57,903 nt of DNA from a virus: positions 1-57,903 of IMG/VR virus record IMGVR_UViG_3300017724_000003; one strand, given 5' to 3'. The position numbers were made by a program, and so were the translations under genes. A model generated the notes under the pieces. The model was given only the letters and a program-made list of their open reading frames with translations. It was not told the DNA's origin and did no database searches. Below, in pieces: positions 1,449 through 54,104 of this stretch; within the stretch, counting starts at the first letter, position 1; the number at the start of each line of letters is the position of its first letter.

Positions 1449-1450
1449 AC

Positions 1451-8037: not shown

Positions 8038-8045
8038 TAGTTTTC

Positions 8046-8435
8046 CTACTTTTTTTTACCAATTCCTGAGACAGCCCACCTGATTCCCATGCTCGCGGCT
8101 ATGGCCCCGCAAAAAATATAGCTGTACCAATCCGGCGCGTGCTGCTGTAGGAAGACGAAGCCTTCCTTTACGTACTCTTGCGTCCACGGAAGGAAAGAAC
8201 CAATGAAAGGCATGATGACAACAGCCAACGCAACCTCGTCTTTAAGGCTGTACCTTGTTTCTTTGAGGGCTTGAATGTCGTAATCAGTGACGGCTTGGGC
8301 CGTCGTCTGTATCTGCTGTATCTCAGCTTCGACTCGGGCCTCAGCGATGCGAGCTTTACTTTCAGACTTGGCTCGGCGCTGAGCCATAAAGTCGCCAGCA
8401 ATACCAGTAACCCCGCTGATGATTGTTCCCCACAT
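8046..8435 (-). CDS. Membrane protein, holin-like (Gly-rich N-terminus, charged helix, two C-terminal TM segments)
   Basis: Hydrophobic segments VALAVVIMPFIGSFL and YIFCGAIAASMGI. Lies immediately upstream of the endolysin. The layout resembles 3-TM GTA-type holins. Confidence 0.5.
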   Translation of the reverse strand: MWGTIISGVTGIAGDFMAQRRAKSESKARIAEARVEAEIQQIQTTAQAVTDYDIQALKETRYSLKDEVALAVVIMPFIGSFLPWTQEYVKEGFVFLQQHAPDWYSYIFCGAIAASMGIRWAVSGIGKKK

Positions 8436-8448
8436 GTGTGTCTCCTAA

Positions 8449-8667
8449 TTACTTCTTCCAACGAATACGTTTCGAGCTCGTCTTCCTCTTGGCTGCCGAC
8501 GTGCACTGTGCTTTTGTCGGTCGACAAGCCGGATACCCCTTGCGTTTTTCGCCCTTCTGACGTCCACAAGGCTTCCCCGTCTTGCAGTCGACCCAACCTT
8601 TTCCGTTGTTTTGACTGAACCATGTCTTTAAGCTATTCGATTTCTTTGTCTTTTGTCGTCCTGCCAT
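8449..8667 (-). CDS. Small basic Cys-containing conserved phage protein
   Basis: 72 aa. KGWVDCKTGKPCGRQKGEKRKGYPACRP motif with a very Lys/Arg-rich tail. Confidence 0.6.
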   Translation of the reverse strand: MAGRQKTKKSNSLKTWFSQNNGKGWVDCKTGKPCGRQKGEKRKGYPACRPTKAQCTSAAKRKTSSKRIRWKK

Positions 8668-20060: not shown

Positions 20061-20222
20061 ATGTGGCATGTGACTGTCCGCGAGGCAGAAGAAGGCGCGA
20101 TGTTCTTAGACATGTCGGATGTCCTCGATGACATAGGCTGGGAGCATGGAGACGAACTTGTCTTCATCAAGAAGGAAGACGGCTCCATACTCATTCGGAA
20201 AAAGTTTAGTCCCAATCCTTAG
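20061..20222 (+). CDS. Small AbrB/SpoVT-like protein (53 aa); not in the ORF track
   Basis: ATG 1 nt after the upstream stop. ...LDDIGWEHGDELVFIKKEDGSILIRK resembles the looped-hinge-helix fold signature. Converges on and overlaps the giant gene by 17 nt. Confidence 0.4.
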   Translation: MWHVTVREAEEGAMFLDMSDVLDDIGWEHGDELVFIKKEDGSILIRKKFSPNP

Positions 20223-40840: not shown

Positions 40841-41850
40841 TATTCTCTCCCTGTTGCGAGGTTAGTCAGACGATTAAGTGTGGGGTCGCCTTCAGGTTCA
40901 GGTGCCGACATAGCATCGCCTGCTTGTGGCGTCTGAGAGATTGTCCCAGTAAATGCTTGGCGGCGCTTGTGAATGTCACGGAGGCTTGCCATCTCTTCAC
41001 TGTCCATGCTGTTCTTGAAGTCAGTCATGACACGCATGGTAAGACCAGCGTCAATGAAGTCATCTTCTGTGTAGCCACGCTCGTTAGCGAACACACGGAA
41101 GTCTTCCGCCATTTCATCACTAAGACCGACTTGAGCCGCACCCTTGTCCAGGTTGTTGGCAATCATCTGAGAGGCAGCCTTGCCTTTCATGTCCTGAGCT
41201 TCAATAGCCTGCTTTGCTGCACCGTCGGCTGCTGCTTCGCCCTGCTGTAGGACTTTCGCAAGCATGCCCTGGAGCTGCTGCATGTTGCCTGCCATTGTCG
41301 CCATTTGCTGTTGCGACTCACGGAAGCCAGGCGGCAGGGCAACAGCGTTGTCCTCTTCCCACTGACTAAGTGCATCGCGAGTCATCTCGGCGCTTGCTTG
41401 GACATTGGTCTTGCCGTCTTCGTCACCCATCTGTGGGTTGGACTGACCAGCCTTCATCATGTTTAAGATTTGACGAGCGGCGTCATCAGGGTTTTTAGCG
41501 AACCCATTTTTGATGGCAGCCTCAACAACCTTATTCAGGTTAGCGTTCTGAGAGTTAGCGAAGTTTAAGTCTCGATAACGCTTGAAGGTCTCTCGGATTT
41601 GGTTGGGATTCAGCTTGCGCATGTCACCCTCACCGAAGTCGATTTCATACAGGATGGCATCCATGTCCATCTTGTCGCCTTCGGTTTGCGGAGAACCTTC
41701 GTCTACAGCTTTCTCTTCTGCTGTTTCAGGTGCCTCTGCTGGCGCTGCTGGTGCTGGGGCTTGTGCTTGTTGTGGGTCAACACCCATTTGTTTAGATGCG
41801 AGCGTGTCGATTAGATTTGCTTGCGCTTCCTGTGGCAGTTCATCAGCCAT
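40840..41850 (-). CDS. Scaffolding protein candidate
   Basis: 336 aa, acidic, A/Q/E-rich and helical. Lies immediately upstream of the capsid gene. Confidence 0.55.
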   Translation of the reverse strand: MADELPQEAQANLIDTLASKQMGVDPQQAQAPAPAAPAEAPETAEEKAVDEGSPQTEGDKMDMDAILYEIDFGEGDMRKLNPNQIRETFKRYRDLNFANSQNANLNKVVEAAIKNGFAKNPDDAARQILNMMKAGQSNPQMGDEDGKTNVQASAEMTRDALSQWEEDNAVALPPGFRESQQQMATMAGNMQQLQGMLAKVLQQGEAAADGAAKQAIEAQDMKGKAASQMIANNLDKGAAQVGLSDEMAEDFRVFANERGYTEDDFIDAGLTMRVMTDFKNSMDSEEMASLRDIHKRRQAFTGTISQTPQAGDAMSAPEPEGDPTLNRLTNLATGRE

Positions 41851-41853
41851 TGT

Positions 41854-42174
41854 TTACTCCTCTCCCGGCCTTGGCGGGGATTTGGTTAAGATATTGAATG
41901 AAGCCGTGGCGTCACTCAGTTCATCTGCTGCCTCGAGCCGTATTAGAGATTCCAGATGAAGCTCTAGCTTATCTGGCAACTCGAGTAGCTGCTTTGCGGC
42001 CCAGATAGAGCCGCGTCGGAAGTGCATCTCTTCAACAGGCATGGCAGCGTTGTTTGCCATTCCCATTGCCGCACTAACGATTTCCTGTTCCATCACTTCT
42101 CGGATGTAAGTCCAGCCGCGTGATGACTTTAGTGTTTCGACGCCCTTGAGGTTCGTCTTATCTTTACGTGACAT
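41854..42174 (-). CDS. Hypothetical protein
   Basis: 106-aa ORF, tightly packed in the late operon. Confidence 0.5.
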   Translation of the reverse strand: MSRKDKTNLKGVETLKSSRGWTYIREVMEQEIVSAAMGMANNAAMPVEEMHFRRGSIWAAKQLLELPDKLELHLESLIRLEAADELSDATASFNILTKSPPRPGEE

Positions 42175-42627
42175 TTATTTGAAATAACCCTCGTTGAATT
42201 TAGTTGGCTTGTTCATCTCATCGCTGATTTCTTGATTGCTGAAATACTGGTTGGAGAACTGCTTGTCCATGTCGATTTGTTGAAACGTCTTCATTACGTT
42301 GTCTGTAAGAGAAAGCGGTATTGTTGGAACAAAACCAACGAGGCCAGCAAGAATGTCAGACGCTCTCATGGGTGGCGCGTTCGGGCTTCTGTCGCCAGCA
42401 AAGCCGCCACTGAATGTGTTGAGCATTTGGTCCGCTGCGCGGCTCACTGCGGTATCACCGCTAAACAAGCCCTTTGCCTTTGGACGGTTGTAGTAAACGT
42501 CATCAGGTATGTCTGTGAAGTTTGTGCTAGGGACGTAACCAAACGGGTTAGCGCGTGCGGCAAGCTCATCTTCTTGAGACATGAGATTGGCACCATACAG
42601 GTTCCGCTGCTGGTCACTTATCGGCAT
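42175..42627 (-). CDS. Hypothetical protein
   Basis: 150-aa ORF abutting both neighbours. Confidence 0.5.
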   Translation of the reverse strand: MPISDQQRNLYGANLMSQEDELAARANPFGYVPSTNFTDIPDDVYYNRPKAKGLFSGDTAVSRAADQMLNTFSGGFAGDRSPNAPPMRASDILAGLVGFVPTIPLSLTDNVMKTFQQIDMDKQFSNQYFSNQEISDEMNKPTKFNEGYFK

Positions 42628-43019
42628 TAGGCTCTCCGGCTAACGCGGCGGTTAGGTGAGCCTGCTAGGGCTGCACGGTCACGCTGCATCTGACGCGAGG
42701 TTGCCTGATTGTAGGCTTTGATGGCCTTGCTCATCTCGTCATTAAACGTGGTGTCCGTTTCAGCGGTTGATTTCGCCACAGACATTCCTTCGCTTACTGA
42801 TGCGTTGTCAGTGGGTCTTTCTTCTGCTGCCATCGGATTGGGGGCTGGAGCTGATGCGCTGGTTGATGGCAAGCCTGGCTTGCTCTGCGCAATCTCAGGA
42901 GCTCCCTGACCTGCGTTACGGTATTTATCAAACAGTGTTTGAAACCGAGCGAAGGGACCAGAGCCTGCTCGCTTTAAGCGACCAGCTTCGTAATCGCGGA
43001 AACTACCTGAGAATGCCAT
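42627..43019 (-). CDS. Hypothetical protein
   Basis: 130-aa ORF, 1-nt overlap with the downstream gene. Confidence 0.5.
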   Translation of the reverse strand: MAFSGSFRDYEAGRLKRAGSGPFARFQTLFDKYRNAGQGAPEIAQSKPGLPSTSASAPAPNPMAAEERPTDNASVSEGMSVAKSTAETDTTFNDEMSKAIKAYNQATSRQMQRDRAALAGSPNRRVSRRA

Positions 43020-43043
43020 GATTAAGCCCGCCGTGTTTTCGCT

Positions 43044-43661
43044 TTAGATTTCCGTGCTGTGGGTTTCCCCGCCATCACTGTCTTGTGTGCTTTCGCTTTC
43101 TTGCCGCGACCAGGAGCGGCGCGTTTTCTTCCCATAGCCATCTTCGTATTCCTCTCTTGCTTGTCGTCGTTGATATAGGTGCTTCACCTCTTTTGATGAA
43201 GCGCCCTTGTAATACCTTTGTGCCTCAAGTTGCCTACTGGCGTCGTCCAGTTCGGTCAGCCTTTGGACGAAGACCATTGCATACGGCTCGTCCACAAGAG
43301 GCGTGAAGTCATCATCATCGGCGAAATCTGGGTCAGGGTCGTCCGGGTGAAATCCGATGAGCCACAGGTTACTTTTGGCGAGCTGTGGATTTATATCGTT
43401 TAGGTCTTTGTGGAAGTCCGCGCTGCTTTTTTCTGGGTTGAGCTCTGCGTGTATCACAATGCTCTTGGTCTGCGGGAACCGTCGCGCGGTATCCATGATG
43501 GAAGAGTAGCTCCACCCAAACCCGATACGTATTTCTACGTGGTCGCGCTCTAGCGCATTCTCTGCAAAAGGACAGGCAGGCATGCCGTTGAAGTGGGGAC
43601 TGTTGGGCGTCAGGTACTTTTTGGCCCAGAGGCGCAACTCTGACTTAATAAGCTCTTTCAT
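43044..43661 (-). CDS. Hypothetical protein with an acidic middle and a basic/acidic C-terminal tail
   Basis: 205-aa ORF in the accessory island. Confidence 0.5.
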   Translation of the reverse strand: MKELIKSELRLWAKKYLTPNSPHFNGMPACPFAENALERDHVEIRIGFGWSYSSIMDTARRFPQTKSIVIHAELNPEKSSADFHKDLNDINPQLAKSNLWLIGFHPDDPDPDFADDDDFTPLVDEPYAMVFVQRLTELDDASRQLEAQRYYKGASSKEVKHLYQRRQAREEYEDGYGKKTRRSWSRQESESTQDSDGGETHSTEI

Positions 43662-43662
43662 A

Positions 43663-43911
43663 TTATTCGGAGAAGAACTGCATGCCGATTGCTGCGGCGA
43701 TGCCAGATAGGATGGTTAGAGTGACGACACGGGTTATTGTTTGGCCTACAGCGCCTTTTGTTTCGCGCCAGCTATCGAGCAGGTTTCTTAGTTCGTAGAC
43801 GTCATGAATTGCGTCGTCATCGTGCAAGCCCACATCAGAAAGCGCCTTGCGAGCACCCGCTTCAGCAGCGCGCTCAAGTAGTATCTCTAGTTCTGCTTGC
43901 TCAATGTCCAT
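43663..43911 (-). CDS. Small protein with a C-terminal transmembrane anchor
   Basis: 82 aa. C-terminal VVTLTILSGIAAAIGMQFF. Confidence 0.5.
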   Translation of the reverse strand: MDIEQAELEILLERAAEAGARKALSDVGLHDDDAIHDVYELRNLLDSWRETKGAVGQTITRVVTLTILSGIAAAIGMQFFSE

Positions 43912-43947
43912 GGTGCATAGTTACCTATTTACAGTTACTGGTCGTCC

Positions 43948-44490
43948 CTAGATGAACTTCGGCCCAACAAACCAACTAACAATGCTGTGCCTTGTGCCAG
44001 AAGTGACTGGTTTTACTTGGTGCATTAAGAAGCTAGGGAAGACGAGGATTGAGCCGCGTTTGTCAAAGTTCGTCGGGGTGGTCTCTTCGCCATCGTCTAC
44101 AAAGACAAACTCTCCGCCCTCATAGTCTTCGGGGTCTGAAAGCTGAATAACGATACTTAGCTTTCTCATATTGTCTTCGAGCTTAAACGTGTCTATGTGA
44201 GCGTCGTAGAACTCACCCACCGCATACTTTGTGAACTGAATGCCGTTGTCGCCATGTATGTCGAAGTCCCAAGCCTGCCTGTTCGCCATGAAGGTGTAAT
44301 GGCTTACGAGGCCACCTATCCAGTGGCCTGAGTCGACCCAAGACACCCGCGACTTGCGCTTCTCAATGTTGAGGTCGCCACCCGCCTCGGCTTGCTTCTC
44401 TGGTAGCGAAAGCCCGTGCTCGATAATTTCGTCGCATATGGAGGCAGGCAACTCACTGGTCCATGACCAGTAGTGTGGGTCTACTATCAT
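43948..44490 (-). CDS. 2OG-Fe(II) oxygenase, prolyl-4-hydroxylase-like (P4Hc / 2OG-FeII_Oxy_3 type)
   Basis: YAVGEFYDAHIDTF (HxD), RKLSIVIQLSDPEDYEGGEF, LMHQVKPVTSGTRHSIV (distal His and Arg). Confidence 0.8.
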   Translation of the reverse strand: MIVDPHYWSWTSELPASICDEIIEHGLSLPEKQAEAGGDLNIEKRKSRVSWVDSGHWIGGLVSHYTFMANRQAWDFDIHGDNGIQFTKYAVGEFYDAHIDTFKLEDNMRKLSIVIQLSDPEDYEGGEFVFVDDGEETTPTNFDKRGSILVFPSFLMHQVKPVTSGTRHSIVSWFVGPKFI

Positions 44491-45188
44491 CTATATAGCT
44501 TTACTAAAATCGTGTCCTGCTCGGCTGTTAGAACAGGCGAATTTGAGGTGAGAGGTATTAAGCGTTTCTTTTTGAAAGACCCGTCTGACTTAGACAGGGG
44601 GGAGAATAGCGACAAGAAATGACAATGCTCACCCTCGGGCTCAATGGTAATTGATTGGCCAGCGAGTAGAGGGATAACTTTTCGCTTGAAGCTGGAGCTA
44701 TTCTTGGTGGGCAGCGTGCATACTAATTCAGAGCCGGGGTGGAGCACCTCCAGCTTTATCGCCGACCAGCGAGGACTGAACGCGATGGAGCAGTCCGTCC
44801 ACTCTTCCAGGTTCCAGACAGCGCTGGCGTCTATGTAAGCCGTGACTCTGCCTGTGGTCGAATTAAAGGTATAACGGTCGATGAAGAAAGGCTCTGTTCC
44901 TGCCATAGCAGCCTCTACGGCATCCATATCTGTACCAGTTACACACTTGTATGTTGCTGCTACATAGTCATCGGATGGGCTGCTGGGCGATGGAGTGGCG
45001 CATACCCAAGGAGTTGCACCAGAAACAAGGTGGGACGTTTCAGGATGCTCAGAGGCACCCTCATAAAGATTGTTGGTTTCTTCAGGTAAGAATGTTGCCT
45101 GCTGACCAACGTGGGACAGAGGAGCATAACTCAGGGCAAGCTCGTCGGTCGCATGAATTGGGATGTTTACTCTACCTTTTAAGGACAT
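44487..45188 (-). CDS. Hypothetical protein (possible cupin-like C-terminus)
   Basis: 233-aa ORF, ATGA overlap with the downstream oxygenase gene. The cupin hint rests only on ...ITIEPEGEHCHF. Confidence 0.5.
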   Translation of the reverse strand: MSLKGRVNIPIHATDELALSYAPLSHVGQQATFLPEETNNLYEGASEHPETSHLVSGATPWVCATPSPSSPSDDYVAATYKCVTGTDMDAVEAAMAGTEPFFIDRYTFNSTTGRVTAYIDASAVWNLEEWTDCSIAFSPRWSAIKLEVLHPGSELVCTLPTKNSSSFKRKVIPLLAGQSITIEPEGEHCHFLSLFSPLSKSDGSFKKKRLIPLTSNSPVLTAEQDTILVKLYR

Positions 45189-45193
45189 TGCAT

Positions 45194-45463
45194 TTACTCG
45201 ATTGAGTTAGATGATGTTCCGGTCGTGCCAACCAGTGAAGCGGTACCTGTAATTGCAGGGGTAGGAGCGCACACCGCAAGAATGGTTGCGTCAATCGACT
45301 CTCTTGTGGCGGTCTCGTCTACCTGGTTGTCTGGGTCGTGCACAGCAGGAACTAGAACCGTTCTTGACTCTCCATCATGAGTAAAGGACACAAGGTACTC
45401 GCGAGTGTCAACGTCATAAGCAACAATGGTGTAATCAACTGTAATGGTCATTTTCTTTCCCAC
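45194..45463 (-). CDS. Hypothetical protein
   Basis: 89-aa ORF overlapping the upstream gene end by 16 nt. Confidence 0.45.
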   Translation of the reverse strand: MGKKMTITVDYTIVAYDVDTREYLVSFTHDGESRTVLVPAVHDPDNQVDETATRESIDATILAVCAPTPAITGTASLVGTTGTSSNSIE

Positions 45464-46152
45464 ATAGTTTCGCGATAAAGACTTGGGCGGCTAGTGCGCT
45501 GACTCCTTAAATGGTTAAGCGCCTTGACCTCCTTGCTTGACATCGCTCGAATATCAGACTTCTTGTCCATACCCCTCTTAAAAGGTATGGCCTGAACGAC
45601 AGGATAGCCTCGCGGAATCAGAAGGGTCGTCCCCTTCGGCTTTAGGAAGCTAGGGAAGTTCACAAACTCGAGATACTTATCTGTCTCGACTACTCCAGCC
45701 ATCGGCTCGAAGTATTTGTTTTCTCTGTTTAAGGGGGAGACGAAGAGTGTCGACCAACCAGGCGGGGTCCGCATGTGCCAGTAGTTCATTATCTTTAGGG
45801 GTAATCTCGGTAGTGACGGATGACCCTTTATCTGTTGCGTCGCATGCTCCTCGATAACCGAGTGAGTAAAGTCTGTATGCCATTCAACGCCGCTGCCATC
45901 GTCATTGATGGAGACTTCCATTTCTGCTGGCGTCGTCAATATCCAGCCGCTAACCATAGCGTCCAGAACAGGCGGGCATCGCTTGATGGTCCGGTTAGGC
46001 CAAACGGTTCCAGAGTCGGGGTCTTGGTTAGCAAACCCCTTTAGCTTTTTGAACCAATCAGGCAACAAAGACCTAGCAGGGATAGGCTCTGGGATTACGC
46101 CATACAGCTCTGGGTATGTAGTGAAAGTAACTTTAGGATTTCCAAATATCAT
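45448..46152 (-). CDS. Conserved hypothetical protein, possibly another double-stranded beta-helix (oxygenase-like) protein
   Basis: 234 aa. WHTDF (HxD-like) and a later YWHMRTPPGW. ATGA overlap with the collagen-like gene stop. Fold assignment is speculative. Confidence 0.5.
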   Translation of the reverse strand: MIFGNPKVTFTTYPELYGVIPEPIPARSLLPDWFKKLKGFANQDPDSGTVWPNRTIKRCPPVLDAMVSGWILTTPAEMEVSINDDGSGVEWHTDFTHSVIEEHATQQIKGHPSLPRLPLKIMNYWHMRTPPGWSTLFVSPLNRENKYFEPMAGVVETDKYLEFVNFPSFLKPKGTTLLIPRGYPVVQAIPFKRGMDKKSDIRAMSSKEVKALNHLRSQRTSRPSLYRETMWERK

Positions 46153-47969
46153 TGTCGCTCGAATGTAACAGTAACTTCAGTGCCAGACGCCACGGACACA
46201 GCAATCTGCTGTTGCGCCTGTGTAATCGTTATATTTTGGTCAACGTATGAGGTCGTCCCACCTGCTGTGCCGGAGCCACCAGCGTTGCCTGCTTTGCCTG
46301 ACCATGTGCTCGGAGCAGCGCCGCCAGGATTTCCTGAGCCGCCGCCATTGCCTGCACTACCATTGTTGCCTGATGAACCATTGCCTCCAGGGTTTCCGCC
46401 GTTAGCTCCGTTGCCGTTGTTTCCTGGGTTGCCTGAGTTGCCTGAGTTGCCTGGGCTTCCTGCGGAACCGGAGTTGGCACCACTGCCGTTGTTGCCCGCG
46501 CTCCCTGCGTTACCGTTAGAGCCCGCGTTACCGCCACTACCGCCACTACCGTTATAGGAGCGCCCCCCACGGCCTCCATTGCCACCAGTATCAGAATAAT
46601 TAGCGATGGCACCACCATTGCCGCCGTTGCCGTAGCCACTTCGATTGCCGTCGGGGCTTCCGGTATTGCCGTTGGCTCCTGGGAGCATCCCGAGACGCGC
46701 CCCGGCAGCGCCGCCATTGCCGCCACCACCAGCGCCACCACCGCTGCCGCCTGAGCCGCCAGGGCCGTTGTTGCCTGGGTTGCCCGAGCTACCTGGGTTG
46801 CCAGCATTACCTGCGTTGCCTCGTGCTCCACCAGCACCGCCGTTTCCTGCGGCACCTGCGTTACCAGGATTGCCTGCATTACCCGCAGAGCCGCCATTAC
46901 CCGCAGCGCCATTGTTTCCGGGATTGCCGGAGTTGCCGGGATTGCCAGGAGGACCGCCGTTGCCTGCGCTGCCAGCAGGGCCACCTACACCACCATTGCC
47001 CGCAGCTCCACTAGCACCGCCAGCTCCTCCAGCAAAAGTGTGGTAGCTACCAAAAGCTGTGGAGGCTCCAGAATTTCCAGAAGCCCCTGCGTTTCCTGCT
47101 GCCCCAGAATTTCCGCTATTGCCAGCGTTACCTGACGCCCCGCTATTGCCAGCGTTACCTGGGTTGCCTGATGTGGCACCCGAACCGTTATTGCCTGCGT
47201 TTCCTGATGAGCCACTGGTTCCGTTGTTTCCTGCTCCGCCGCCGTTACCGCTTGCACCAGTATTGCCTGCGTTTCCGTTAGAGCCAGAGTTTCCTGGGTT
47301 GCCGTTAGCGCCAAAGTTTCTTCCGTTGCCGGACGCCCCAGTGTTACCGCTTGCACCAGTATTGCCTGCGCCTCCGCCGTTTCCAGGGTTAGAGTTGTAC
47401 CAGCCCATAACCGGGTCCCTGGGTGTATTTCCACGGCTGCCAGCATTGCCGCCGGGACCTGAACCAGCGTTACCTGGGTTGCCTAAGGCGCCTTGCCCCG
47501 CCTTAAAGCTCCCGCTTGCTCCACCGCCTCCGCCGCCTCCAGGGTTTCCTGCGCCGCCTGTATTTCCTGTCGCACCCGGGTTGCCAGCGTTGCCTCGTGC
47601 ACCGCCATTGCCTGCGTTGCCGTTACTGCCTGGGTTGCCTGAGTTTCCTTGAGCGCCACCATTGCCCGCAGGGCCACCGTTACCACGAACACCGTTGTTG
47701 CCCGAGTTCCCTGCATTGCCCGCGTTACCTGCGCTGCCAGCATTACCTGCATTGCCAATCACCCCAGGGTTTCCTGGGTTGCCTGCGTTACCTTGGTTGC
47801 CGTCCGTTCCTGGGTTTCCAGGAGAGCCAGCGTTGCCTGAAGTTCCCTTACCTCGAACAGTGACTTTGGAGATGCCGGGAGGCACGGTAAAGGTTCCGCT
47901 CGATGTGAACGTCTGTGTACCCCCTGGGAACAGAGGGTCTGCGCGCATGGAAACCCCGAGCAAAGGCAT
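46149..47969 (-). CDS. Collagen-like (strict Gly-X-Y) glycine/asparagine-rich fibre protein
   Basis: 606 aa. Non-repeat N-terminus (FTSSGTFTVPPGISKVTV), several long blocks with Gly at every third residue (GNAGNPGNPG...) separated by short linkers, and a globular C-terminal tail. Confidence 0.8.
   Translation of the reverse strand: MPLLGVSMRADPLFPGGTQTFTSSGTFTVPPGISKVTVRGKGTSGNAGSPGNPGTDGNQGNAGNPGNPGVIGNAGNAGSAGNAGNAGNSGNNGVRGNGGPAGNGGAQGNSGNPGSNGNAGNGGARGNAGNPGATGNTGGAGNPGGGGGGGASGSFKAGQGALGNPGNAGSGPGGNAGSRGNTPRDPVMGWYNSNPGNGGGAGNTGASGNTGASGNGRNFGANGNPGNSGSNGNAGNTGASGNGGGAGNNGTSGSSGNAGNNGSGATSGNPGNAGNSGASGNAGNSGNSGAAGNAGASGNSGASTAFGSYHTFAGGAGGASGAAGNGGVGGPAGSAGNGGPPGNPGNSGNPGNNGAAGNGGSAGNAGNPGNAGAAGNGGAGGARGNAGNAGNPGSSGNPGNNGPGGSGGSGGGAGGGGNGGAAGARLGMLPGANGNTGSPDGNRSGYGNGGNGGAIANYSDTGGNGGRGGRSYNGSGGSGGNAGSNGNAGSAGNNGSGANSGSAGSPGNSGNSGNPGNNGNGANGGNPGGNGSSGNNGSAGNGGGSGNPGGAAPSTWSGKAGNAGGSGTAGGTTSYVDQNITITQAQQQIAVSVASGTEVTVTFERQ
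46290..47837. repeat. Degenerate 9-nt/triplet repeat DNA encoding the Gly-X-Y blocks
   Basis: Reiterated GTTGCC(T/A/C)GG-type units. The low complexity keeps long ORFs open in several other frames on both strands. Confidence 0.8.
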
Positions 47970-48292
47970 TAGGACACCTGTGTAGCAAGAGTTACAAAAT
48001 CATCTGGGAGGTCGGCTACGGCAACAGCAAAGTGTTGCTTGCGATAGCTGTCAGAACCATCGTCTGCCTCCCAGAGCACTTGGTTGAAGACGAGAACAGG
48101 TGTGTCCTCGAATGTTACTTGTTCTTCACCGTCCCAAAACCATGTTGATAAAGCGGCTAGGCTTTCCGTAGGGTCTGCATAATCTAGGTTGGTGTAAGCA
48201 ATCCCGTTGGCATCCAGCCACTGTCTAATTGTGGCGCTGGCTGCCTGACCGGGCTTCGCATACAAATGAATGTCGTCGTAGCGGATAGTCAT
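47969..48292 (-). CDS. Hypothetical protein, possibly a glutaredoxin/NrdH-like fold lacking the CxxC motif
   Basis: IHLYAKPGQAASATIRQWLDANGIAYTNLDY mirrors the Grx beta-alpha-beta start, with QAAS where CxxC is expected. TAATG overlap with the collagen-like gene start. Confidence 0.45.
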   Translation of the reverse strand: MTIRYDDIHLYAKPGQAASATIRQWLDANGIAYTNLDYADPTESLAALSTWFWDGEEQVTFEDTPVLVFNQVLWEADDGSDSYRKQHFAVAVADLPDDFVTLATQVS

Positions 48293-48294
48293 CT

Positions 48295-50316
48295 CTAAGC
48301 CTCATAGAAAGATAGTGATACGTAGATGGTGGTAGAGCCCTTCACGAGCAGGGCTGTGTAGATTGTCTCCTTGTTCGCCGCAGTATTTACGCCAGGCTGG
48401 GTAGACGAGCTGTTGTATTTGATTGAGTAACCAGAAGGAGCGGCGAAAGTGAACGCACGACCACCCGTCCCGTCCTGCTTAACAAACACTGTTACTGTCC
48501 GAGCTGTGCCTGTCGGCATTTCGTCTGTGTCTGGGAGGGTGACGGTTGTGCCGCCCGTCAGTGTGTAGCTGACGTTGTTGGTTGCGTCAGGAATAGTTAC
48601 TGAACCACTGACGTTTGCGTTTGACGCCATAACCTCCTGGAAGTTCTCAAGGGTAACGTCCGTAATCTTGTTGTTGTTAAAGTCTACGTCGCCCGTCATC
48701 GTGCCACCAGCAAGGGGCAGTTTTGCGGCAATCGCATTGTTTGTCGTCGTCGCAAAGTTGCTGTCGTCGTTTAGCGCTGCGGCCAACTCGTTGAGGGTAT
48801 CGAGGGAAGCTGGTGCGCTGTCCACGATGGCAGCAACTTCCGTGTCTACGTAGCCTTTGGTGGCTGCATGACCCGTCGCTGTCGGGGTGGCAACCGTAAT
48901 GGTGTTGGTTGTTGTCGCACCTACATCGGTAAGAGCTTGCAAGGTATACGCGGTAGGCGTGTATGCAGAACCACTAAACACAGGCACTTGGTTTGCTGAC
49001 GGAGCAGTTGCCGCTACGTTCGCCAAATCCTGTAGGTTTATGCTGGAAAAAGCCGAAGACGTAACCCAAGAAATGCCGTTGTAAGATTTAAGCTGGTTAT
49101 TGGCTGTGTCATACCACAGGTCGCCCGCACCGATGTTCGACCCTACAGGAGCGAATGGGCCAATAAAGTAAGTGTTCGCGAATGAATTTACATCCGCAAT
49201 GCTTCCGGCAACAGTATTTACGTTAGCAATAGAGCCCGCCACGGTAGAGACGTTTGTGTTGTTGCCAGCAACAGTGGTTACATCTGAGGTGATGCCGCCA
49301 ACAGCAGTCACGTTTGCATTGTTGCCTGCGACAGTGTTGATGTTTGCGCTATTGTTTGCGACCGCTGTGACGTTGGAGTCGATGCCAGCAACAGTGTTTA
49401 CGTTGGCTATTGAGGCTGCAACCGTTCCGACGGTGTCTGTGCCAGCCAAATCGGCGGCGACAGTCCCAATGTCAGTAGCGTCACCAGCTACAGAAGTTAC
49501 GTTCGCCGAGATGCCAGCAACGATATTTACGTTGGCTACGTTTGCTGAAACGACACCGATGTCTGTAGCGTCTCCCGCAACCGCTGTTACGTCACTTGAG
49601 ATGCCCGCAACCGTAGTTACGTTTGCATCAATACCGCTCACGGTATTTACGTTTGCGATGTTGGTCGCGACTGTCTGGACAGATGAGATGTTTGCGGACA
49701 CCGTAGTTACGGGTGTAGACGTTGCCCAGTATTTAGCTGAGTAGTTGGTTCCGTCGACTGTACCGCTGGTTTTTGTTGCCCACTCCATTGCCGCGCCACG
49801 GTTCGCCGTGTCGGTTACGCCTGTGCCGCCAATAGCCCATGCCTTTGCAGAGTATTCGCTACCCGTTACTGCGCCATCTGTTTTGTTGGCGTAGTCAGAT
49901 ACCAGAGAGCCGTTGATGACTTTCTGAAACTTGGTTGCGTCAGGCGTGGCTGCTGAGGACGTATGAGCTGATATGCAGACGTGGGTGTCTTGCGCGTTGG
50001 TGACGATGTCGAGTGGTTTGTATGCGGTGGCAGTTGCGTATGCGCCGCGCGGATTGAATATCTCAACGCCTGTCTCCACAAAGCTATTGCCTGTGCCAAC
50101 ACGAACTTCGAGTTTGTTGTTGTCCGTTGTGTCGACCTGGAAGGTAAAGATAGTTGCGTCGAACGTACCGTTGCTACTGTTGAAGATGTCACCGAGAAGC
50201 TGGCTCAGTTGGCGTCCGCCAATCTCAGCATTCTCCATATATGTGTCCAGAACGTGCTCACCAGTATTGGCGGAGACGAAACGGAGCTGTTCACCTGTGG
50301 GGCGCGTAATAGCCAT
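48295..50316 (-). CDS. Tail fiber protein 2, with YSAK(A/Y)WA motifs and a 10-aa tandem-repeat shaft
   Basis: N-terminal domain homologous to ORF 35476-37023. EYSAKAWA / NYSAKYWA. About 17 repeats of the xNVxTVAGxx type. Confidence 0.75.
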   Translation of the reverse strand: MAITRPTGEQLRFVSANTGEHVLDTYMENAEIGGRQLSQLLGDIFNSSNGTFDATIFTFQVDTTDNNKLEVRVGTGNSFVETGVEIFNPRGAYATATAYKPLDIVTNAQDTHVCISAHTSSAATPDATKFQKVINGSLVSDYANKTDGAVTGSEYSAKAWAIGGTGVTDTANRGAAMEWATKTSGTVDGTNYSAKYWATSTPVTTVSANISSVQTVATNIANVNTVSGIDANVTTVAGISSDVTAVAGDATDIGVVSANVANVNIVAGISANVTSVAGDATDIGTVAADLAGTDTVGTVAASIANVNTVAGIDSNVTAVANNSANINTVAGNNANVTAVGGITSDVTTVAGNNTNVSTVAGSIANVNTVAGSIADVNSFANTYFIGPFAPVGSNIGAGDLWYDTANNQLKSYNGISWVTSSAFSSINLQDLANVAATAPSANQVPVFSGSAYTPTAYTLQALTDVGATTTNTITVATPTATGHAATKGYVDTEVAAIVDSAPASLDTLNELAAALNDDSNFATTTNNAIAAKLPLAGGTMTGDVDFNNNKITDVTLENFQEVMASNANVSGSVTIPDATNNVSYTLTGGTTVTLPDTDEMPTGTARTVTVFVKQDGTGGRAFTFAAPSGYSIKYNSSSTQPGVNTAANKETIYTALLVKGSTTIYVSLSFYEA
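49177..49707. repeat. About 30-nt in-frame tandem repeats (about 17 units) within tail fiber 2
   Basis: Protein aa 204-380 read as ANVNTVSGID ANVTTVAGIS SDVTAVAGDA TDIGVVSANV and so on. The repeats cause shadow ORF 49172-49744 on the plus strand. Confidence 0.8.
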
Positions 50317-50522
50317 TATAGTCGTCCTTTCAGGTTGGCAACCTCGGCTTCGAGGATAGCCACCTTCTCCTGTAGTTTTGCAATCACTTGAGCGTTTTGA
50401 ATGCCCCAGTCCTTTTGATTACGATTAACCTGCTCAAACACTGCGTGGACATAGTCCACAACCCCTGTGTCAAGAGACGGTTCCATTGCTGCTGCACGGG
50501 AGTTAATTGTTTCGTTAGCCAT
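50316..50522 (-). CDS. Small coiled-coil protein
   Basis: 68-aa ORF overlapping the portal stop by 8 nt and the fiber start by 1 nt. Confidence 0.5.
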   Translation of the reverse strand: MANETINSRAAAMEPSLDTGVVDYVHAVFEQVNRNQKDWGIQNAQVIAKLQEKVAILEAEVANLKGRL

Positions 50523-52437
50523 TTCTCTGTGCCTCGCTCATTGGGATGAGGTTGCCTTTTTCTACCTCACGTGAGATGTCTTCTTGCGGCTGGACAGATG
50601 CACCACGCATCTTCTCCATCAACGCAATTTGTTGACTAGGTGAATTGCCTTGCGCCTTCTCTTCTTCAGAGATGCGGAATTGGTCTAGGTCTGAAATGCC
50701 CAGGGCCCGGATAGCTTCCTCAGCAATCTTGCCCATCTTGTATTCCATGTTGAGTCCGGTCTGGCTCATCATTTGAAGCATGTTCATCCACGTCTCTGCA
50801 TTGCGTGTAGGCTCAACAGGAAGCGTGCCGTCGATAACCAGGTAGTCAATCTGACCTTGTAGGTCACGAGACGTGTAGTCGATGTAACCATCGTCCACCA
50901 TGTCTGCCAGTTGGCCAGGCATCTTGTCTGGGTCAATCTTGATTGAGCCATCAAGGTCAAGAGAGTCTTGGATGTTGGATGTCATCATGCGGACCATCGG
51001 GCGGATGGTTGTCGCAGAGATGACACGACTAAGAACACCCAGACGCTGAGAACCAAGTTGCGTCATTCGCGCAATCTCTGTCGCTGTGCGTACATCCGGC
51101 GTCGGCATACCCTGTTGCGCGTCACTGGCTGAAGAGACGCGGTTCTTGAGTTCTGACATAGCTTGGATGTCGTTCCAGTGGCCACGAGTGACATCTGGAA
51201 CTTGGGCAATAAAGACACCATCGCCAGGCTTAGCACCTGGCATGGTGCGAACAACACCCCATGGATTGCGGTCGATGAGGTCGGGAACCATTACCTGTGT
51301 CGGGTCGACAAAGATTAGGTTGTTGAGGGCGGCCTGCACATTGTCAATACGACTACGAAGCAGCCACGTTGCAATATCGTGCATAGGGAGCATGAGGTCA
51401 TAGAGGGATTGACCCCACGTTTTGTGGCTGTCGTTATACAGACCGCCCACAACTACTGGGAACTGTTGGCCGTATGGGTTTAGTTGCATACGGATACAGA
51501 TGTGTTCGTCGAGAATGGTAATGACCATCCAGATTTGTTCGATGGATGGAATGCCGATTTCGTGACCAGCAAAGCGCACCCAGCATTCGTCTGTGACACG
51601 TGCGTCACCCAATGTGAAATACGCATGGTCCATACGCTCGCGTTGGTTAGGAGCGGCTGGGTCAATGTTGAGGCCCCGTCCCTCTTCTTTATGCCATCTA
51701 TGGGCAGCCCACGCGTTCCGAGGAGGGGCGGTGCGGTGGCGGAGGGACGGGTGCTTTTTGAGTTTGGGGTAGAGGCCCGAACTCATAAGCGTGTTAAAGC
51801 TGACGTAGTCAGTAAATACACAATACTGCCACTTCTCCCAATCGCCCCAGCTTACGCGTGGGTCAGGGAAGGCACGGCGTGGGTCAAAATTCACTATCTG
51901 GTTTTGGTTTGACTTGGAGTCCCAAACGATTTTTGTGGGAGCAAAGCCATACCTAATGCTATCGAGAAGCATCTGAGCAAGCCGAGCTTCACCAGCAGTT
52001 CTTCGCATTTGGCTGTGAAGCACACGCTCAAGAATTGATGAGACCTTCCGGCTGTTTCGGTTTAGTCCTTCGAGCTGGAACATCGGATTGCGTCCAGCAA
52101 GAGCAGCCATCAAGTAAGTGAGGACGGTGTCCGCCACTGCACGGGTGTCTGCGATTACCGCCTTTTCGCGGAACTGAGTAGCTTCGGGCGGGACGTAGAC
52201 GTCGTGAGCTCGGTCAGCTTCTGTCCAGTGGTCGTACCGCTTCTTAATTTTGTTGTACGACATGTCTACACAGGACTTAACGTAGTCCACGATGCGACGC
52301 TCTTCTTCCTCAGTCAGGTCGTCAGAGATGTCTTCGTAATTGGTTAGCTTGCGCGCCAGGCGTGACAGGTCGACAATCATCCCATCAGTAGGAGAGAAAG
52401 CGTAATCTGCGCCATATAAGTTTGAATCTTCAGCCAT
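50515..52437 (-). CDS. Portal protein
   Basis: 640-aa ORF immediately downstream of TerL. Size and position are typical of a portal; I recognised no contradicting motif. Confidence 0.7.
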   Translation of the reverse strand: MAEDSNLYGADYAFSPTDGMIVDLSRLARKLTNYEDISDDLTEEEERRIVDYVKSCVDMSYNKIKKRYDHWTEADRAHDVYVPPEATQFREKAVIADTRAVADTVLTYLMAALAGRNPMFQLEGLNRNSRKVSSILERVLHSQMRRTAGEARLAQMLLDSIRYGFAPTKIVWDSKSNQNQIVNFDPRRAFPDPRVSWGDWEKWQYCVFTDYVSFNTLMSSGLYPKLKKHPSLRHRTAPPRNAWAAHRWHKEEGRGLNIDPAAPNQRERMDHAYFTLGDARVTDECWVRFAGHEIGIPSIEQIWMVITILDEHICIRMQLNPYGQQFPVVVGGLYNDSHKTWGQSLYDLMLPMHDIATWLLRSRIDNVQAALNNLIFVDPTQVMVPDLIDRNPWGVVRTMPGAKPGDGVFIAQVPDVTRGHWNDIQAMSELKNRVSSASDAQQGMPTPDVRTATEIARMTQLGSQRLGVLSRVISATTIRPMVRMMTSNIQDSLDLDGSIKIDPDKMPGQLADMVDDGYIDYTSRDLQGQIDYLVIDGTLPVEPTRNAETWMNMLQMMSQTGLNMEYKMGKIAEEAIRALGISDLDQFRISEEEKAQGNSPSQQIALMEKMRGASVQPQEDISREVEKGNLIPMSEAQRNG

Positions 52438-52475: not shown

Positions 52476-54104
52476 TTATAACTCACCCCAACCCTTGAAA
52501 ATGTCTCTGCCATACTGCTCAGATAGAGAGTCTCTTTTTCTGTGAGTCTCCTGCATCAAAGAGTTGCCAGACTCGAGTGAGCCAAATACAGACTCGGGTG
52601 TAATTGTTTGGCGGGACAGGACGTCCACTGCCATTGATAGAGCATCTACTTGGTCATCATGTTTGCCGCTTGGGAACGCAACGCACTCCTCCACGAAATC
52701 ATCAAGCCATGTAGCTTTTTCTGGGAGCCACACTCTGCCGCCTTGGATGAGCGGCGTAATCCCGTTGATGCGCGATACCTTATCGTTGACCACCTTATAT
52801 GGAACAACAGCAATCCCTGACTCGCGACGCAAGTCCTGAATGATGGACTGGCCGGATGCCTTGTCCTCAACATAAAGCGCGCGCAAGCCTCTGCCTCTCC
52901 AAGTTGCGTTGATGTTGATGAGCTTTGCGCGTAACTCTGGGTAATCCCAGCGCCCACGATGTATGTCCACAATGTAGATGTCACCTTCATGGGTTAGGCC
53001 AGCGACAATGGCCACAGAGTAGTCGGCGGTCTCCGTCTTCTTAAAGGCGGTGTCTGCTGCAATGATTAAGCTCTGGAAGTTCGTGGGGTTCAGGTCTTCT
53101 GGGTAGTAGTTCCACCACTCTGACTTGAGGATGTTACCACCCTCGATGTATGGCTGCTGCTGGTATAGGGACGCGAAGTCGCGAGGGTTGAGACGCTCAC
53201 GTCTGCGCAGCTCCTCGACGGGAAAGCGCTCTGGCCACAGGGCTACTTCTTTTGTCTCCTGGTGGTAGCGCTTTCCTTTGGCTAGGTTTGAAAGCTCCCC
53301 GGCCTCGACATACATCGGGTGGTCTTTTGGTAGGTTACGCCGAGAAACTTTCTCGCCACCAACGGTCTTGATGGCTGGATAGTCGAGGTGCATCCACAAC
53401 CCCTCCTTCCAGTCGGCTGTTCTCATTAGGCGTCCAGCTAAGTCGTCTGGATGCCAGCGCGTGAGGATAACGATTTGACTGGGTGCTTGCCCCTGCCCGT
53501 CTGGCTGTAGACGAGTGGATAGGGCTGCTGTGTAGAAGTCCCATATCTTGTTGCGCTGGGTTGCGGACTCCGCATCCTCGCGTGACTTAACTGGGTCATC
53601 GACGATAAGTAGGTTTGCTGGTCGACCAGTTGTTGTGCCGCCAATACCCACACCAAAGTATGCGCCGCCCATCTCTGTGCGCCACACATCCGCTGCCCGA
53701 CTATCGCTAGACATCTTGAAGTCAGGGAATGCCTGTTGAACTTCTACGCCAGCAGCTCGGTCACGCACCTGCCGACCAAAGTCAGAGGCCAGCATTGCGT
53801 TGTATGAGCAGGACAGGATGTAGCGGCTGGGATTCTTCGCCATATAGTAGGCAGGAAATAACACAGTCGAGAATGTGGACTTGGCATGTCGAGGTGGCAT
53901 GGTGACGAGGATGTTTCTGGCGGGACGGCCTTCGTCGTCTTCTAGCTCTCCGCGCTCCAGGGCGTCCAGCTTCCTAATAAGGTCTAGCTGAAAGTCCGCA
54001 AGCTCGAAGGTCGGCTCTACTATGCGAACAAAACCCTCAAAGCTCTTCTCTGCATCTTGGAGTTTAAGTAGATGCTTGGCTGCTGCCGAGCGGGACACAC
54101 TCAT
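52476..54104 (-). CDS. terL: Terminase large subunit
   Basis: Walker A-like MPPRHAKST and Walker B LLIVDDPV. C-terminal RNaseH-like nuclease residues (IIAADTAF..., HDDQVDAL). Confidence 0.9.
   Translation of the reverse strand: MSVSRSAAAKHLLKLQDAEKSFEGFVRIVEPTFELADFQLDLIRKLDALERGELEDDEGRPARNILVTMPPRHAKSTFSTVLFPAYYMAKNPSRYILSCSYNAMLASDFGRQVRDRAAGVEVQQAFPDFKMSSDSRAADVWRTEMGGAYFGVGIGGTTTGRPANLLIVDDPVKSREDAESATQRNKIWDFYTAALSTRLQPDGQGQAPSQIVILTRWHPDDLAGRLMRTADWKEGLWMHLDYPAIKTVGGEKVSRRNLPKDHPMYVEAGELSNLAKGKRYHQETKEVALWPERFPVEELRRRERLNPRDFASLYQQQPYIEGGNILKSEWWNYYPEDLNPTNFQSLIIAADTAFKKTETADYSVAIVAGLTHEGDIYIVDIHRGRWDYPELRAKLININATWRGRGLRALYVEDKASGQSIIQDLRRESGIAVVPYKVVNDKVSRINGITPLIQGGRVWLPEKATWLDDFVEECVAFPSGKHDDQVDALSMAVDVLSRQTITPESVFGSLESGNSLMQETHRKRDSLSEQYGRDIFKGWGEL

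Follow-up and report, generated by a model that had tools for sequence, protein, structure and literature searches.

The stretch of DNA analyzed here comprises all 57,903 nucleotides of IMG/VR virus record IMGVR_UViG_3300017724_000003 (the window), which we assign to the CRP-810-type temperate marine phages because its terminase–portal–fibre layout and its integrase agree with those of the published family (PMC11288001). On its minus strand lies a block of six genes, numbered g1 to g6 in the order in which they are read, which encodes among others a Gly/Asn-rich repeat protein, presumably a structural component associated with the fibre (g2), a member of the DUF6065 family (g3), and a 2-oxoglutarate- and Fe(II)-dependent (2OG-Fe(II)) oxygenase (g6). 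Gene linkage, enzyme family, and proline context support a functional pairing of the Gly-rich fibre protein with the oxygenase, which is of prolyl 4-hydroxylase (P4H) type in a broad sense, and suggest that some phages may chemically modify their own receptor-binding fibres. The genes of the block and the fibre gene that precedes them are as follows:

43948–48292, minus strand: six-gene block g1–g6
47969–48292, minus strand: g1, 107 amino acids (aa), small conserved partner
46149–47969, minus strand: g2, 606 aa, Gly/Asn-rich Gly-X-Y repeat protein
45448–46152, minus strand: g3, 234 aa, DUF6065/phrog_7084, conserved partner of g2 and g6
45194–45463, minus strand: g4, 89 aa, lineage-specific small protein
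44487–45188, minus strand: g5, 233 aa, lineage-restricted orphan
43948–44490, minus strand: g6, 180 aa, 2OG-Fe(II) oxygenase of prolyl-hydroxylase/PKHD type
48295–50316, minus strand: tail fibre, 673 aa, matching PHROG tail-fibre families (phrog_21412, E-value 3e-23)
48298–48687, minus strand: C-terminal 130 residues of the fibre (aa 544–673), tip domain travelling with the module

All six leftward open reading frames (ORFs) described in the first-pass annotation were recovered with unchanged boundaries and lengths, and so were their junctions: TAATG between g1 and g2, ATGA between g2 and g3, a 16-nt overlap between g3 and g4, a 5-nt gap between g4 and g5, and ATGA between g5 and g6. Tight gene junctions are ordinary in phage late genes. 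The idea of a translationally coupled cassette of six genes holds as far as the junctions go but not as a closed unit, the 673-aa fibre gene lying upstream at a distance of 2 nt. No promoter-like or terminator-like site was found on the minus strand from 41800 to 51000, and the only two terminator-like sites are located inside the portal gene, near 51050, so that the six genes are part of one long late gene block.

Linkage of the Gly-Rich Gene and the Oxygenase across Phages

Outside the lineage of the window, the core of the block recurs in a T4-like myovirus locus (L050/L051), where a fibre of 1194 aa is followed, in the same order as in the window, by proteins of 107 aa and 359 aa (the latter Gly-rich), a DUF6065 protein, and a 2OG oxygenase, with gp13/14/15 downstream. 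Identities between the window and L050 reach 38% for the fibre tip, 34% for g1, 45% for g3 (P0038), and 46% for g6, and the two fibres are related over their last 130 residues only. Because L050 keeps these genes without g4 and g5, the unit that has moved between phage types consists of the fibre tip, g1, g2, g3, and g6. CRP-810 itself carries unrelated genes 3' of its fibre gene, so that the position occupied by the module is a variable slot. Judging from these comparisons, the module is very probably a functional unit, and the locus is best explained as a horizontally mobile tail-fibre-tip module inserted in this variable slot.

A survey anchored on g3 returned 46 viral loci, which we collapsed to 18 g3 clusters. 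Close relatives keep the entire block. Overall, 12 of the 18 clusters have a Gly-rich neighbor, and 11 have a g6-type oxygenase at a distance of at most 1.5 kb; several of the misses are truncated contigs. In about 24 distant podovirus-like loci (26–37% identity), the genes come in the order fibre with a Gly-rich C-terminus, protein of ~145 aa, g3, g6, and a second HxD...H protein of ~182 aa. L049 is rearranged and combines three oxygenase-like genes with a g2-like protein and g3. In the podovirus-like loci, the gene for the ~182-aa protein (L023:9217–9780 and equivalents in L019–L044) is a third conserved gene, located after g3 and g6; it encodes an H-T-D...H signature, has no Pfam match, and possibly specifies another divergent oxygenase.

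A second survey comprised 80 viral loci picked solely for a g6-like gene, collapsed to 17 oxygenase clusters. In about 25 loci, a Gly-rich protein is encoded on the same strand just upstream. A same-strand Gly-rich ORF ending at most 2.5 kb upstream of the g6-type oxygenase was found in 7 of 16 clusters, as compared with 2 of the 66 bins for other distances, an enrichment that is significant by Fisher's test (p = 8.7e-5). Co-occurrence of the collagen-like gene and the oxygenase across phages, which had been put forward as a check on their pairing, is thus borne out by a position-specific link, in addition to the co-transfer to L050. Several of the Gly-rich neighbors match Gly_rich_2 (L062, E-value 1e-13; L069, 7e-42; L061; L085), L030 doing so weakly (E-value 0.015). 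Another one, on an 81-kb viral contig (L074, 3117–5460), is a collagen-like protein with GPTGPPG-type repeats (Pfam Collagen, E-value 8.5e-11), whose gene lies directly after that of a 1041-aa Gly-rich protein and ~1 kb upstream of a g6-type oxygenase. In the pelagiphages HTVC023P (L002, gp59–gp71) and HTVC033P (L003, gp60–gp64), two to four tandem 2OG oxygenases are located directly downstream of Gly-rich paralogs (35–46% Gly per 100 aa), all annotated as hypothetical. As both phages are in culture and have the same gene adjacency, the idea is experimentally accessible. Beyond the close relatives, g3 is rare in this survey, being found in three loci as tandem pairs: in L079, L088, and L096 (~7060–8540), a g6-type oxygenase gene is followed ~630 bp downstream by two DUF6065-like genes in tandem, and none of these loci contains a strongly Gly-rich ORF. 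In the searchable literature we found no phage collagen/P4H pair and nothing on DUF6065 or on a linkage of oxygenases with glycine-rich fibres, in agreement with the first-pass remark that no experimentally described phage-encoded pair was known.

Linkage may also be examined by presence and absence. Among 15 CRP-810-type loci collected via the portal protein, 5 have the Gly-rich protein together with g3 and g6, 6 have none of them, and 4 have the Gly-rich protein only, whereas g3 or g6 without a Gly-rich protein occurs in 0 of 15. This test has low power and is confounded by phylogeny, because the carriers form one close lineage and non-module neighbors co-vary.

The same data bear on the possibility that g6, along with g3, is a host-directed auxiliary gene that merely sits in a recombination-prone fibre slot and does not act on g2, in which case hydroxylation of translation factors or ribosomal proteins, a PiuC/YbiX-type part in iron or siderophore physiology, or repair would be possible roles. 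We consider such hitch-hiking unlikely. It would agree with the variability of the slot, as seen in CRP-810, with the 9 of 17 oxygenase clusters in which there is no Gly-rich neighbor, with the PKHD type of the closest solved relatives of g6 and its match to PPHD (see below), with the listing of 2OG oxygenases of the CRP-810 family, in some subgroups only, as DNA-repair auxiliary genes (PMC11288001), and with the description of viral P4H function as "cryptic" (PMC9301287). On the other hand, the module moves between unrelated phage types with its gene order kept, the enrichment of Gly-rich ORFs is specific to one position, and the linkage survives rearrangement (L049, L060, L016); moreover, g6 has no AlkB-type similarity, and in CRP-810-type loci g3 and g6 never occur without a Gly-rich protein.

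Architecture of the Gly-X-Y Repeat Protein

The repeat protein g2 can be divided into nine segments, for which identities are given as means of pairwise comparisons among 9 orthologs (46–90% identity):

47847–47969, minus strand: N-terminal 41-aa beta-strand region GGTQTFTSSGTFTVPPGISKVTV, 75% identity in the 9 orthologs
47505–47846, minus strand: arm 1, 38 Gly-X-Y triplets, 108–114 residues in the 9 orthologs, 66% identity
47385–47504, minus strand: variable segment A (aa 156–195), proposed distal tip, 15–47 residues
47061–47384, minus strand: arm 2, 36 triplets, 107–134 residues in orthologs, 54% identity
47028–47060, minus strand: central hinge TAFGSYHTFAG, 10–11 residues, 62% identity
46695–47027, minus strand: arm 3, 37 triplets, 108–124 residues in orthologs, 66% identity
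46551–46694, minus strand: variable segment C (aa 426–473), proposed second distal tip, 18–48 residues
46254–46550, minus strand: arm 4, ~33 triplets, 99–123 residues in orthologs, 62% identity
46152–46253, minus strand: C-terminal 34-aa beta-strand region, 33–34 residues and 70% identity in orthologs

Gly makes up 35% and Asn 17% of g2, which contains 142 Gly-X-Y triplets (426 of its 606 residues). The first-pass description of Gly at every third residue over hundreds of residues holds for the number of triplets but not for their continuity, as they form 10 runs, the longest of 38 and 37 triplets, instead of one; the many Asn-Pro-Gly triplets that it mentioned amount to 18. The protein matches Pfam Collagen (PF01391) at 52.5 bits, for a cut-off of 27.2 (E-value 4e-14), and also PHROG tail-fibre families; it is probably a fibre protein of the virion.

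These features could describe a collagen proper, in which g2 would be the stalk of a parallel homotrimeric triple helix with its ends at opposite poles, and g6 a collagen P4H making Gly-Asn-Hyp (hydroxyproline). Although we regard this alternative as rather unlikely, it has in its favor the Pfam score above the cut-off, the unbroken runs of 37–38 triplets, the location of Pro at Y as in hydroxylated eukaryotic collagens, the full-length alignment of g6 to solved collagen-type P4Hs, and the well-documented presence of collagen-like segments in the tail fibres of phages (PMC3368898). In addition, many breaks within the arms consist of exactly three residues (such as ATS, ANS, or HNN), which keeps the register; RNF and ATS in arm 2 and ANS and ANG in arm 4 are of this kind. 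The composition of the repeats speaks against a collagen, however. In host-guest peptide studies, Gly at X or Y destabilizes the triple helix, and g2 has Gly at X in 12 and at Y in 27 triplets. Its X positions are occupied by Asn in 52% and by Pro in 3% of cases, and its Y positions by Ala (29%), Gly (19%), Ser (18%), Pro (14%), and Thr (4%), with 4% charged residues. Prokaryotic collagens, by comparison, have 19–31% Pro at X and 32–48% Thr at Y (PMC8968730), and their stabilizing composition (Pro at X; Thr, Gln, or charged residues at Y) is not that of g2. Nor is there an obvious rationale, in a parallel rod, for four equal arms, a hinge, and two variable segments, and the relatives in L049 and P0087, which share the termini of g2, are too irregular for a triple helix. 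The earlier notion of a collagen-like fibre is therefore retained for the Gly-X-Y repeats and the Pfam match but not for the composition and the four-arm plan.

The alternative to a collagen rod that we favor for g2 is a glycine-rich fibre that folds back on itself, as suggested by its four equal arms, its conserved base and hinge, and its variable inter-arm segments. The four arms of ~110 residues are present in 9 of 9 orthologs, and the hinge motif F-G-x-Y-x-T-F is common to all of them. Segments A and C show 36% and 38% identity (26% and 24% when Gly columns are left out), the former being the least conserved part of the protein. By inspection, the N-terminal motif resembles the start of phage glycine-rich domains. 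The conserved N- and C-termini recur in L049, L050, and P0087. On inspection, the 359-aa homolog of L050 also shows approximately this plan, its arms being about half the length, whereas L049 and P0087 are irregular. The four-equal-arm plan would argue for a fold-back, yet it is compatible with triple helices as well.

Homolog searches with full-length g2 were dominated by low-complexity candidates and gave one usable match (P0087), and a search with its joined non-repeat termini returned only a 62-aa fragment, which is why no deep alignment of g2 could be assembled. Recent tandem expansion of the DNA was rejected as the source of the periodicity, as only short arrays of 9, 18, or 27 bp in 2–6 copies were seen.

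The Oxygenase and Its Possible Target

The catalytic residues of g6 are located as follows:

43990–44199, minus strand: g6 catalytic core (H98, D100, H157, R167), invariant in the 34-sequence alignment

The enzyme matches Pfam 2OG-FeII_Oxy_3 (E-value 1.7e-18, 67.8 bits, cut-off 27) and falls in phrog_61 (E-value 2e-39). The HxD...H...R signature noticed in g6 in the first-pass annotation is confirmed by the invariance of all four residues among 34 homologs. R167 is located at H157+10, the position of the basic residue that binds the C5 carboxylate of 2OG. This residue is a Lys in collagen-type P4Hs and an Arg in PHD, in PPHD (an EF-Tu prolyl hydroxylase), and in PKHD-type enzymes, so that R167 places g6 nearer the latter group. 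The best PDB matches of the g6 family profile are the PKHD-type proteins 3dkq (Sbal_3634; E-value 2.5e-19) and PiuC (8e-17). Full-length matches were also obtained with the P4Hs of PBCV-1 (9e-14), Chlamydomonas (7e-13), and Bacillus anthracis (2e-12) and, further down, with P3H1, PPHD, PHD2, and human C-P4H. By sequence, then, g6 is prolyl-hydroxylase-like at the superfamily level and not specifically a collagen P4H: the designation P4H-type is right as to the prolyl-hydroxylase-like branch, but g6 stands closer to PKHD-type hydroxylases than to collagen P4Hs. An AlkB-type repair enzyme was rejected, because g6 has neither a match to Pfam 2OG-FeII_Oxy_2 nor a profile match to any AlkB-type PDB chain at E-values up to 0.01.

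The prolines of g2 are distributed in a way that is of interest in this respect. Twenty are found at Y and 4 at X, a ratio that reaches 31:2 in orthologs, and in the g2 lineage 72–79% of Pro residues precede Gly (p 1e-5 to 1e-8). The triplets with Pro at Y are spread along the arms and not clustered at the turns. In prokaryotic collagens, on the contrary, Pro occupies X, and Y is taken by Thr (PMC8968730). The bias, which is weaker in L050, L049, and L030, fits hydroxylation at X-Pro-Gly, a modification that would stabilize any helix of polyproline-II type. Taking linkage, enzyme family, and proline context together, we find the arguments for and against an action of g6 on g2 evenly balanced, and prolyl hydroxylation at X-Pro-Gly, as the particular reaction, possible but doubtful.

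It is also conceivable, though quite improbable in our view, that g6, perhaps with g3, modifies g2 at residues other than proline, for instance by Asn beta-hydroxylation, an FIH/AspH-like chemistry that belongs to another 2OG branch. The abundance of Asn in g2, above all at X, would then be accounted for, and DUF6065 is linked to Asn-rich period-3 repeats in bacteria too (see below); the other Gly-rich proteins linked to oxygenases are not enriched in Pro-Gly and commonly contain Asn, and an "aspartyl hydroxylase" has been reported for other subgroups of the CRP-810 family (PMC11288001). Yet all functionally named solved relatives of g6, the PKHD type aside, are prolyl hydroxylases, g6 shows no similarity to the AspH or JmjC/FIH families, and modification off proline would leave the strong bias of Pro toward Y unexplained.

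DUF6065 and Asn-Rich Period-3 Repeat Proteins

We assigned g3 to Pfam DUF6065 (E-value 7e-8) and to phrog_7084 (E-value 1e-50). Its AlphaFold2 (AF2) model is of high confidence (predicted local distance difference test [pLDDT] 92, predicted template modeling [TM] score 0.83), and the top 50 Foldseek matches of this model in the PDB are all trimeric dUTPases (3ecy_A, E-value 2.3e-4; TM score at most 0.74 on the target). In BFVD, its own family comes first and viral dUTPases next, whereas a sequence search of the PDB with g3 found no dUTPase. Residues that are invariant among 54 homologs include K57, C59, H103, Q107, K120, and Y226, H103 being the only invariant His. Inspection of the alignment revealed a motif-III-like G-x-V-(D/E)-T-D-K-Y and a motif-IV-like P-L-V-Q-A-I-P but no other dUTPase motif, and the C-terminus forms two helices instead of motif V. 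With the five-motif set incomplete and motif V missing, we file g3 as a DUF6065 protein with a dUTPase-like fold, not as a dUTPase. The HxD for which it had been singled out in the first-pass annotation is an H-T-D that is not conserved among the 54 homologs; this and the fold rule out that g3 is a second 2OG oxygenase.

The fold raises the question of whether g3 and g6 act together on nucleotides or DNA, independently of the fibre, as an enzyme of the dUTPase/dCTP-deaminase superfamily and a base or nucleotide hydroxylase, respectively. We deem this very improbable. Besides the fold and the motif-III-like sequence, a weak match of g6 to Pfam Oxygenase-NA (E-value 8e-4, below the cut-off) points in this direction, as does halovirus HF1 (AY190604.2, 41218–55916), in which the g3 homolog, encoded without an oxygenase, lies between ribonucleotide reductase and the tail module and is also adjoined by a DNA methylase. 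But HF1 encodes a Gly-rich tail protein ~900 bp from g3 as well, the motif V required for dUTP hydrolysis is replaced by two helices in g3, and the profile of g6 matches protein hydroxylases, not TET/JBP or AlkB. Bacterial DUF6065 genes, finally, have no oxygenase nearby and stand beside genes for secreted (Asn-Ser-Ser)n proteins.

This last observation comes from 399 DUF6065 relatives on genome contigs, of which the best 80 were analyzed. These 80 are all from Alphaproteobacteria (38–46% identity), and no g6-like gene lies within 6 kb in any of their loci. The adjacent gene encodes, in at least 41 of 76 alphaproteobacterial loci, a protein with a signal peptide followed by (Asn-Ser-Ser/Asn-Ser-Asn)n repeats, on the same strand in Rhizobiaceae and convergently in Rhodobacterales, Aminobacter, Nitratireductor, and Inquilinus. 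In bacteria and phages alike, DUF6065 thus occurs together with proteins in which Asn recurs with a period of three residues. Full-length DUF6065 homologs (~36% identity) are also found in haloarchaeal tailed viruses (50 records).

The (Asn-Ser-Ser)n neighbors (L136–L215, e.g., L149:5974–7222) are small proteins with an acidic tail. Near alphaproteobacterial DUF6065 genes there are also genes for an extracytoplasmic function sigma factor, for a putative anti-sigma factor, and for an S8 peptidase whose N-terminus is D/G-rich. On the viral side, DUF6065 is followed in L018, L027, and L032 (e.g., L018:2772–4294) by a 260-aa protein weakly similar to glycosyltransferase family 2, with no oxygenase. 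In L045–L048 (e.g., L046:7911–9295), a distant DUF6065 gene overlaps that of a ferredoxin-dependent bilin reductase (Pfam Fe_bilin_red, E-value 8e-17) in a cyanophage-like auxiliary-gene setting, with no nearby fibre or oxygenase.

A Possible Maturation System for Repeat Fibres

We propose that g2 derives from the "glycine-rich domain" type of phage adhesin. A small base would be made up of its N- and C-terminal strands, and from this base the four arms (~110 residues each) would extend and return, forming two long hairpins of polyproline-II/polyglycine-II-type helices, with the two variable inter-arm segments exposed as distal tips. The product of g6, encoded in the same late gene block, would most likely act on g2 as a hydroxylase, prior to assembly or in its course; the foremost candidate sites are the ~20 Y-position prolines (X-Pro-Gly), where hydroxyproline would stiffen and stabilize the extended helices. 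The DUF6065 protein g3 would be a second maturation factor that recognizes Asn-rich period-3 repeats, and g1 may serve as a fibre-tip adaptor or chaperone. We give about even chances to this explanation of the locus, as a horizontally mobile tail-fibre-tip module whose parts have these functions.

In its most general form, this proposal would mean that unrelated marine phage families carry a dedicated maturation system for period-3 repeat fibres, of which haloarchaeal viruses would have the DUF6065 part. The Gly-rich receptor-binding fibre of a phage would be hydroxylated by an oxygenase of P4H/PKHD type that the same phage encodes; DUF6065 would be an unrecognized factor for Asn-rich period-3 repeats, serving (Asn-Ser-Ser)n secreted proteins in Alphaproteobacteria; and g2 would be a new type of fibre, a fold-back polyproline-II/polyglycine-II rod dependent on hydroxylation, with an estimated length of ~30 nm (~110 residues per arm at ~0.3 nm per residue). 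Taken as a whole, with the oxygenase, DUF6065, and the new fibre type all included, we give this broad reading a low probability.

Several observations weigh against the explanation given above for the locus. The AF2 model of g2, built from a two-sequence alignment, has a pLDDT of 36, too low for it to separate a collagen triple helix from polyglycine-II, and only the terminal strands are moderately confident (residues 18–42, pLDDT 56–71; residues 577–605, pLDDT 62–66). At E-values up to 0.1, g2 does not match Gly_rich_2 (PF21722), and the case for its fold-back topology is one of sequence architecture. The dUTPase-like fold modeled for g3 suggests nucleotide binding and offers no obvious role in fibre maturation. 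As for g6, its Arg is not the Lys of collagen-type P4Hs, and the entries of its best solved relatives, the PKHD-type Sbal_3634 and PiuC, name no substrate. The Pro-Gly bias is absent from the Gly_rich_2 proteins encoded beside other g6-type oxygenases and reversed in the collagen-like protein of L074, which has Pro at X. X-Pro-Gly as a target common to all g6-type oxygenases is consequently not supported, and we discarded it; if all these oxygenases act on their neighbors, the target motif is not universal. To these points must be added the oxygenase clusters that have no Gly-rich neighbor, the CRP-810-type loci with a Gly-rich fibre protein but neither g3 nor g6, and the low power of the presence/absence test.

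Relation to Known Systems

Several known systems share features with the module. The P4H of PBCV-1 (PDB 5c5t/5c5u) is, like g6, virus-encoded, small, and of monomeric size, and is matched by the g6 profile over its full length. Its substrates are Pro-Ala-Pro-Lys-type repeats, not Gly-Asn-Pro. It differs in that it belongs to a giant eukaryotic virus and is not known to adjoin its substrate gene, and g6 scores higher against PKHD-type enzymes. Repeat proteins of the virus itself are the presumed targets of this enzyme (Eriksson et al. 1999, cited in PMC9301287). The B. anthracis P4H (PDB 3itq/5hv0), also aligned to the g6 profile over its full length (E-value 1.7e-12), hydroxylates collagen-like Gly-X-Y peptides and favors Pro at Y (PMC8968730). 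This system is a cellular one, however, with no conserved substrate operon, and the collagen-like spore protein BclA is Thr-rich and glycosylated, whereas g2 is rich in Asn, Ala, and Ser. PKHD-type enzymes (Shewanella Sbal_3634, 3dkq; PiuC/YbiX, 9ghl and 9qn0-4) share with g6 the HxD...H...R core and the "EDYEGGE" region but are cellular, are linked to TonB-dependent iron uptake loci (PMC12004947), and have no Gly-rich neighbor.

Among fibre proteins, gp24 of cyanophage Pam3 (with its chaperone gp25) and gp38 of Salmonella phage S16 (PDB 6F45) are distal receptor-binding proteins with extended Gly-rich motifs; their stem is conserved, their distal tips are hypervariable, and the genes of their helpers follow immediately downstream (PMC9608196). 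They resemble g2 in their terminal strands, conservation pattern, and genomic position. Their domains have 10–12 short Gly-rich motifs and no associated oxygenase, in contrast to g2, with its four arms of ~36 triplets in strict Gly-X-Y and its lack of a Gly_rich_2 match. Nevertheless, the layout of g2 would seem to fit the logic of these adhesins better than that of a single parallel collagen rod. The collagen-like tail fibres of prophages (E. coli O157 EPclA-type; PMC3368898) also have Gly-X-Y repeats in fibre genes, but as one repeat block between globular domains, in which Pro occupies X and Y is Thr or charged, and they come without a dedicated hydroxylase.

The oxygenase is, in addition, a member of the P4H/2OG auxiliary genes of marine phages (phrog_61), a family abundant in cyanophages and pelagiphages that is usually deemed host-directed or involved in DNA repair, with an unclear role (PMC9301287, PMC11288001), and of which a subset is here linked to Gly-rich proteins. 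P4H-annotated 2OG-Fe(II) oxygenases are among the commonest "auxiliary metabolic genes" of marine viromes, and their role is called cryptic or assigned by default to DNA repair; the linkage offers these very abundant marine viral genes a concrete role that can be tested. If the proposal is true, many P4H genes would shift from "host metabolism" to "virion maturation," and the assembly and stability of fibres, perhaps even infectivity, would be tied to the oxygen, iron, and 2-oxoglutarate of the host. It would also be the first enzymatic system of post-translational hydroxylation described for a phage fibre. DUF6065 gains a testable context, that of Asn-rich period-3 repeat proteins in phages and Alphaproteobacteria, and the four equal Gly-X-Y arms of g2 are indicative of an unusual fibre architecture.

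Accessory Genes and Genome Setting

The remaining genes of the block are less informative. The small protein g1 is kept in all close relatives but has no Pfam or PHROG family match. Its sub-threshold matches to glutaredoxin-like/Spx families (E-value ~0.02; 15 bits for cut-offs of 66–100) amount to a weak, thioredoxin-fold-like signal. The proposal that it is glutaredoxin-like had to be abandoned: the sequence contains no cysteine, hence neither CxxC nor CxxS, which rules out a redox-active glutaredoxin. For g4, which has no family match, the GTG start at 45463 gives the 16-nt overlap with g3; an in-frame ATG at 45451, preceded by GGGAAAG, has a better purine-rich stretch upstream and would yield 85 aa with an ATGA overlap, and this start appears at least as plausible. 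Homologs of g4 (31–53% identity) were found in close relatives only, and not in L050 or the distant loci. An exhaustive HMMER search of 1.84 billion representative proteins gave 15 matches to g5, a pattern scan of viral contigs for it gave nothing, and profile comparisons related it neither to g3 or g6 nor to any PDB entry; like g4, it is missing from L050. By sequence distribution, g4 and g5 are lineage-specific additions outside the conserved module.

Beyond the block, the following features were identified in the window:

43663–43911, next gene after g6: DUF6127 protein, 82 aa, E-value 4e-21, hydrophobic C-terminus
43044–43661, second gene after g6: 205-aa phrog_28122 protein
50515–52437: portal
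52476–54104: large terminase
5513–6508: integrase

The DUF6127 and phrog_28122 genes accompany the block in all close relatives but, being absent from L050, appear to belong to the backbone rather than to the module. A primase is also encoded in the window, and the fibre DNA has weak matches to Roseobacter phage CRP-810 and to pelagiphages. A single ORF of 3043 aa in the late block (20206–29337, minus strand; at most 24% Gly per 100 aa) presumably encodes, judging by its position, a giant internal virion or tail protein. At the other end of the window (18–3385), two genes belong to PHROG families named for porphyrin/cobalamin biosynthesis, a CobS- and CobT-like AAA ATPase and its partner, which are typical auxiliary genes of marine phages.

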